In this document: piece after piece, positions 43,985 through 44,111 of the stretch
How the letters are laid out: each line of letters begins with the position of its first letter
How positions within the stretch are numbered: position 1 is the stretch's first letter
NCBI RefSeq assembly: GCF_024502345.1
Contig: NZ_JALDNN010000001.1
From: Escherichia coli
GTDB taxonomy: Bacteria > Pseudomonadota > Gammaproteobacteria > Enterobacterales > Enterobacteriaceae
Length of the DNA stretch: 64,000 bases
Strand: one strand, 5' to 3'
Made by a program: the position numbers and the translations under genes
Notes under the pieces: model-generated
Seen by the model: the letters and a program-made list of their open reading frames with translations, nothing else
What the model was told of the DNA's origin: nothing
Databases searched by the model: none

Positions 43985-44111
43985 ACGACTCGGGGTGCCC
44001 TTCTGCGTGAAGGCTGAGAAATACCCGTATCACCTGATCTGGATAATGCCAGCGTAGGGAAGTCACGGACCACCAGGTCATTGCTTCTTCACGTTATGGC
44101 AGGAGCAAACT
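43985..44111 (+). promoter_or_regulatory. TPP (THI-box) riboswitch leader of thiMD
   Basis: GGGGTGCCCTTCTGCGTGAAGGCTGAGAAATACCCGTATCACCTGATCTGGATAATGCCAGCGTAGGGAA, then SD AGGAG before thiM ATG. Confidence 0.9.

Follow-up and report, generated by a model that had tools for sequence, protein, structure and literature searches.

The thiM TPP riboswitch of an Escherichia coli genome and the replaced DNA upstream of its leader

The leader upstream of thiM in the E. coli DNA analyzed here, a stretch of 64 kb that we call the window, raises two questions: whether it is a TPP riboswitch that controls thiM and thiD, and whether such control is exerted on translation alone. An initial annotation, made from the letters of the sequence, had proposed such a riboswitch and called it translational. 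The thiM riboswitch is among the founding and best-studied riboswitches. We conclude, with a probability of about 0.97, that the element is the E. coli thiM TPP riboswitch, a cis-acting RNA in the 5' leader that represses thiMD when TPP is abundant. It is already known and ordinary, its leader being the same as that of the laboratory reference; the only aspect with residual novelty is the upstream DNA and the start of thiMD transcription in this lineage. The discovery value is small, and the locus serves rather as a positive control for a sequence scan, in which element, boundaries, and mechanism were correctly read from raw sequence.

The initial annotation had named an Rfam/Infernal scan with RF00059 as its check. 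When both strands of the 64 kb were searched with 4227 Rfam families, RF00059 (TPP riboswitch) gave a significant match at 43981 to 44077 on the plus strand, scoring 71.2 bits (gathering score, 54.3) with an E value of 5.1e-12. The match spans the full model (positions 1 to 105 of 105), no second RF00059 match occurs in the window, and RefSeq annotates a TPP riboswitch on the same bases. The sole notable departure from the model is the optional P3a arm (11 model positions), which is deleted. Helices P1 to P5 all form in the Rfam alignment, P1 closing the two arms P2/P3 and P4/P5, with three nonstandard pairs flagged. In P1, GACU (43987 to 43990) pairs with AGUC (44061 to 44064). The P2/P3 arm, the pyrimidine sensor, occupies 43991 to 44027 (Rfam alignment, folding, and RNAalifold), and the P4/P5 arm, the pyrophosphate sensor, 44033 to 44058 (Rfam alignment and folding). 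The THI-box nucleotides can be read directly: CUGAGA in J3/2 at 44014 to 44019, and ACCUGAUCUGGAUAAUGCCAGCG in P4/P5 at 44032 to 44054. The residues that we take to contact the ligand (G40, G42, A43, G60, C77, and G78) are all present. All sequence-testable features that define the TPP riboswitch family and a platform sequestering the Shine-Dalgarno (SD) sequence are found here, and we encountered no evidence contradicting the identification. An 82-amino-acid (aa) open reading frame on the minus strand (43825 to 44073) overlaps the aptamer; we rejected it as a mechanical reading frame, absent from the RefSeq annotation.

The motifs quoted in the initial annotation lie on the plus strand where it had placed them, namely, CTGAGA at 44014 to 44019, ACCTGATCTGGATAATGCCAGCGTAGGGAA at 44032 to 44061, AGGAG at 44101 to 44105, and the thiM ATG at 44112. 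The span that it had given, 43985 to 44111, is also correct, running from P1 of the aptamer through the base preceding the start codon. The 3' strand of P1 ends 47 nucleotides (nt) upstream of the thiM ATG, and the Rfam match ends 34 nt upstream. Control of thiMD, likewise proposed there, agrees with the gene order: thiM (hydroxyethylthiazole kinase, 262 aa; 44112 to 44900; PF02110, 358 bits, E value of 3e-107) and thiD (hydroxymethylpyrimidine/phosphomethylpyrimidine kinase, 266 aa; 44897 to 45697; PF08543, 320 bits, E value of 1e-95) follow directly on the same strand, their reading frames overlapping by ATGA. RefSeq annotates the riboswitch, thiM, thiD, yegX, and yegW at exactly the same positions. 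A 401-nt query around the element found matches in 5424 of 5426 complete E. coli genomes. Compared with a derivative of MG1655, the window shows 100% identity from 43978 to 44129, a tract that extends from the aptamer through the platform, the SD, and the start codon to the sixth codon of thiM. The MG1655 thiM aptamer shows TPP-dependent changes upon probing, and crystal structures of it have been reported (PMC1920254). On the strength of the 100% aptamer identity, the window RNA would be expected to bind TPP directly and selectively.

Several other features of the window and of related genomes can be recorded here. The gene following thiD, yegX (glycoside hydrolase family 25; 45753 to 46580, plus strand), is split into reading frames of 97 and 165 aa; in a 100%-identical strain, RefSeq reports an internal stop and classes the gene as a pseudogene, and it is intact in an ExPEC isolate of E. 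coli from mussels (NZ_CM172609.1). In that isolate, an IS3 transposase precedes the leader homology, which starts only at window position 44045, midway through P5; no riboswitch is annotated at the locus (2080 to 2570). The aptamer seems to have been truncated naturally, and thiMD should, judging from the sequence, have lost TPP sensing. Elsewhere in the ExPEC genome lies another partial match. Elsewhere in the window, two matches to the OrzO-P antitoxin sRNA (RF02083) stand in tandem on the minus strand (21389 to 21464 and 21999 to 22072; 99.9 and 88.8 bits), suggesting that a zor-orz type I toxin-antitoxin locus has been duplicated. The Peptidase-S11 RNA motif (RF03039), a candidate cis-regulatory family, matches at 873 to 953 on the plus strand (72.8 bits; gathering score, 34.8), and naRNA4/CssrE (RF02564), a family of nucleoid-associated noncoding RNAs, at 51923 to 51993 on the same strand (68.3 bits).

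To relate the window to published work, we used the numbering of Rentmeester et al. (2007), who probed a 165-nt thiM RNA chemically and enzymatically (PMC1920254). In this "165 thiM" numbering, the leader (nt 1 to 135) corresponds to 43977 to 44111 on the plus strand. The offset of 43976 was checked residue by residue, including at CUGAGA (38 to 43), the ACCA loop (96 to 99), G100/G101, G117 to U119, and the SD (126 to 129). In the unconstrained fold, 44047 to 44062 pairs with 44084 to 44101, and a small linker hairpin with an ACCA loop forms at 44068 to 44079 (nt 92 to 103). Within the longer helix, the anti-SD tract CUUCUU (44084 to 44089) pairs with the aptamer segment GGGAAG (44057 to 44062), and in the ensemble the central GGA of the SD has a probability of being unpaired of 0.6 to 0.67. 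This minimum free energy (MFE) structure equals, pair for pair, the published TPP-free model, in which nt 92 to 103 form a hairpin, residues 71 to 86 pair with nt 125 to 108, the anti-SD pairs with nt 83 to 86, and the SD (nt 126 to 129) is reactive (PMC1920254).

As a proxy for the TPP-bound state, we enforced the aptamer helices P1 to P5. The MFE structure then pairs 44081 to 44088 (UUGCUUCU) with 44101 to 44108 (AGGAGCAA). Within it, CUUCU (44084 to 44088) pairs with AGGAG (44101 to 44105), and the probability that the SD (AGGAGC, 44101 to 44106; core GGAG at 44102 to 44105, nt 126 to 129) is unpaired falls to about 0. This fold agrees with the TPP-bound state of Rentmeester et al., in which a loop, L8, appears at G117 to U119 and SD reactivity is reduced (PMC1920254); the loop of our bound-state fold contains the same residues. 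The anti-SD can pair with the SD or with the aptamer strand, and the two pairings are mutually exclusive. GGGAAG would accordingly act as an anti-anti-SD, lying in the 3' strands of P4 and P1 when TPP is bound and serving as the partner of CUUCUU when it is not. Enforcing the aptamer costs the calculated ensemble about 8 kcal/mol in stability, a gap that fits a switch in which the OFF fold would need the energy of ligand binding.

Together with the probing published for the MG1655 RNA, these folds point to the following mechanism. In the absence of TPP, nt 71 to 86 (44047 to 44062, including GGGAAG), which make up the 3' half of the aptamer, would pair with platform nt 108 to 125 (44084 to 44101, including CUUCUU), leaving the SD core free, so that thiM would be translated. 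Upon TPP binding, P1 to P5 would form and GGGAAG would be withdrawn from CUUCUU. The released anti-SD would then pair with the SD and block ribosome binding. If the window strain follows MG1655, the untranslated thiM mRNA would be terminated by Rho within codons 20 to 34 and its half-life would fall, decreasing both thiM and thiD mRNAs. TPP binding, SD protection, and Rho dependence come from published experiments on the identical leader, and by that analogy they probably occur in the window strain as well.

To evaluate whether the two folds are conserved, we searched species-representative genomes for a DNA pattern in which only the aptamer core was fixed, and recovered at least 120 loci. Among the matches listed, thiM lies directly downstream in at least 65. 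At least 58 of the thiM leaders are from Enterobacterales, with AGGGA and the start codon 48 to 59 nt apart and a GGAG-type SD in every case. We aligned these 58 leaders and that of the window with MAFFT. The invariance of the aptamer in this 59-sequence alignment is partly by construction, especially in P4/P5, since the search pattern fixed those bases. In the platform, CUUCUU (44084 to 44089) and GGAG (44102 to 44105) are the sole near-invariant elements across the 59 leaders, the rest being variable. Given no hint of the switch, RNAalifold returned the aptamer and exactly one platform helix, CUUC.U:(A/G)GGAG, kept in 56 to 59 of the 59; P1, P2, P4, and P5 were kept in all 59. Side observations from the same pattern scan are that at least 55 of the matches listed are not followed by thiM, and that ACCTGATCTGGATAATGCCAGCG, the P4/P5 core, has exact copies in distantly related phyla as well (Bacteroidota, Spirochaetota, Marinimicrobia, Liquorilactobacillus, and Pseudovibrio).

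The SD and anti-SD are so conserved that compensatory changes in them are few; distal P3 pairs (alignment columns 25-40, 26-39, and 27-35) show such changes in 3 of 59 sequences each. In the helix of the OFF fold, 78.7% of cells are paired, compared with 47 to 66% for slid partners. The covariation score of this helix lies above all 500 shuffles, a control that leaves phylogenetic relatedness uncorrected, and exceeds most of the slid controls. The core pairs of the ON fold, GGGAAG:CUUCUU, are kept in 54 to 59 of the 59 leaders, and hence both pairings of CUUCUU are kept in at least 54. The outer extension of the ON helix, GCCAGCG:CGUUAUGGC, is specific to E. coli and only partly conserved. Inspected by eye in the same alignment, the linker hairpin differs in sequence in other genera and its complementarity persists, which fixed-column counts understate because indels leave these positions in poor register in the MAFFT alignment. 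We also folded each of the 59 leaders either free or with the platform isolated, as a proxy for the bound state. This comparison was noisy and weakly discriminating, with a mean probability of the SD being unpaired of 0.31 free and 0.24 bound, a difference in the expected direction (Wilcoxon p = 0.0013). Tight pairing of the SD in the bound proxy was seen in only 23 of the 59 leaders, since the first thiM codons offer competing pairings. Our argument for conservation therefore relies on the helix counts at the level of the alignment rather than on folding of individual species.

The thiM leaders of Citrobacter, Salmonella, Enterobacter, Kosakonia, Pantoea, Erwinia, Pectobacterium, Serratia, and Edwardsiella share the aptamer core, CUUCUU, GGAG, and both pairings with E. 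coli. By eye, many other genera differ in that CCUGnCCGG could pair with CCGGnCAGG, which overlaps the SD. This potential sequestering helix is longer and has no counterpart in E. coli. Overall, what is conserved at the core of the enterobacterial thiM platform is the dual complementarity of CUUCUU, which matches both the SD and the aptamer GGGAAG; the remainder drifts. Constrained folding, the 59 leaders, and the published probing (PMC1920254) thus agree with the initial annotation that the platform can sequester the AGGAG SD.

Upstream of the leader, the window departs from K-12. Sequence shared with MG1655 ends on the left with the rcnR stop codon, around 41706, and resumes on the right at 43978, placing the two junctions exactly at that stop codon and between nt 1 and 2 of the thiM leader. 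The 91-nt ancestral spacer between rcnR and thiM is replaced by a 2.27-kb AT-rich segment (41707 to 43977; 32 to 42% GC). In K-12, this spacer holds the promoter-like arrangements TTTACA-17-TACCAT and TTACCA-15-TATCAT. A blastn-short search for the K-12 spacer in the window returned only chance matches of 10 to 12 nt. The replacement arrangement is common to 457 of the 5424 matching E. coli genomes (about 8%), and O157:H7 strains match it at 99.5%. Escherichia albertii and one divergent Escherichia retain a spacer of the K-12 type, at 86 to 90% identity; since these sister species keep it, the segment in the window is derived. It encodes, on the minus strand, two small proteins with hydrophobic N termini and no Pfam match (104 aa, 41816 to 42130; 115 aa, 42140 to 42487), for which RefSeq gives the names "outer membrane protein" and "hypothetical," and an 85-aa HTH_73 protein (PF24718; 43539 to 43796) divergent from thiM. 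Between 42488 and 43538, about 1 kb with a GC content near 32%, there is no annotated gene and no open reading frame of at least 60 aa.

The replacement bears on how the riboswitch is transcribed. No plus-strand promoter upstream of the leader passes a standard scan; a looser scan gave a single weak candidate, TTCCCC-15-TATAGA, with 7 of 12 matches, whose -10-like TATAGA lies 5 to 7 nt ahead of the start of homology. A limited literature search found no mapped thiM transcription start. The window strain lacks the K-12 promoter region, and its thiMD start, and with it the exact 5' end of the leader, may differ from that of K-12. One could therefore envision an intact riboswitch that has been orphaned transcriptionally, its leader poorly transcribed from foreign AT-rich DNA or begun at another start, with thiMD controlled unlike in K-12. 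The end of homology at 43978, the spacer missing from the window and retained in sister species, and the weakness of the promoter-like site all speak for this. Yet both genes are intact behind a perfectly conserved leader, the 457 complete genomes with this arrangement argue against a crippling defect, a -10-like hexamer sits just ahead of the homology start, and consensus scans poorly predict real promoters. We therefore regard orphaning as unlikely. A horizontally acquired segment may instead have replaced the whole spacer, with a foreign promoter now driving the conserved riboswitch; thiMD might then be transcribed at another level, under other conditions, or from another 5' end, with TPP control left intact. 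We put this forward tentatively, as a possibility of somewhat less than even odds.

The second question is whether the riboswitch of the window is purely translational, with TPP blocking only ribosome binding and leaving transcription and mRNA levels unaffected. Sequestration of the SD is the sole switch visible in the sequence, there is no intrinsic terminator, and regulation has been placed at translation initiation, both by PMC1920254 and, according to PMC5499598, in earlier reports that described this step only. However, Bastet et al. (2017) found that, in MG1655, repression of translation by TPP triggers Rho-dependent termination that needs thiM codons 20 to 34, and that TPP lowers both thiM and thiD mRNAs (PMC5499598). 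The leader of the window is identical to that of MG1655, and codons 20 to 34 (44169 to 44213; C, 31%; G, 20%) differ by one base (44201, C versus T). By analogy with MG1655, these codons would support Rho-dependent termination in the window strain, and a purely translational switch appears improbable, somewhat more so than orphaning. The term "translational riboswitch" in the initial annotation thus names the primary event, SD sequestration, correctly; it is incomplete as to the outcome because, in MG1655, repression of translation also triggers Rho-dependent termination (PMC5499598).

TPP riboswitches with a ligand-induced intrinsic terminator exist in Firmicutes, and a transcription-attenuating mechanism of this type, as in many Bacillus thi leaders, might be considered here. 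We rejected an intrinsic terminator as the expression platform: from 43981 to 44112 on the plus strand there is no terminator-like stem followed by a T run, the sole plus-strand candidate lies farther upstream, at 43848 to 43864, and PMC5499598 likewise reports no obvious Rho-independent terminator. Attenuation of this kind is thus very improbable. That the THI box is a chance resemblance without function has a negligible probability, being already refuted by the RF00059 match (E value of 5e-12 over a full-length structured alignment), the correct thiM/thiD context, and a sequence identical to an experimentally characterized element.

Among known systems, the thiC and tbpA (thiB) riboswitches of E. 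coli share their Rfam family and ligand with thiM. They are found at other loci, neither inside the window with its single RF00059 match, and have other expression platforms; PMC5234074 and PMC11487190 describe a combination of translational and mRNA-level control for both. The closest comparison is the K-12 "165 thiM" RNA, for whose aptamer PMC1920254 cites crystal structures as its references 5 and 6. The window is identical to this construct from nt 2 to nt 153 and shares its aptamer, its anti-SD/SD switch, and the downstream thiMD operon. Over the 165 nt, only nt 1, nt 154, and nt 159 differ; nt 154 (44130) changes codon 7, which is AGT in the window and GGT in K-12, and nt 159 (44135) is silent. 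Upstream of nt 2, in contrast, the DNA is unrelated to that of K-12, and the promoter-like boxes of the latter are replaced. The promoter region of a model riboswitch is thus not conserved within E. coli, which is relevant when expression data from K-12 are transferred to O157-type strains.
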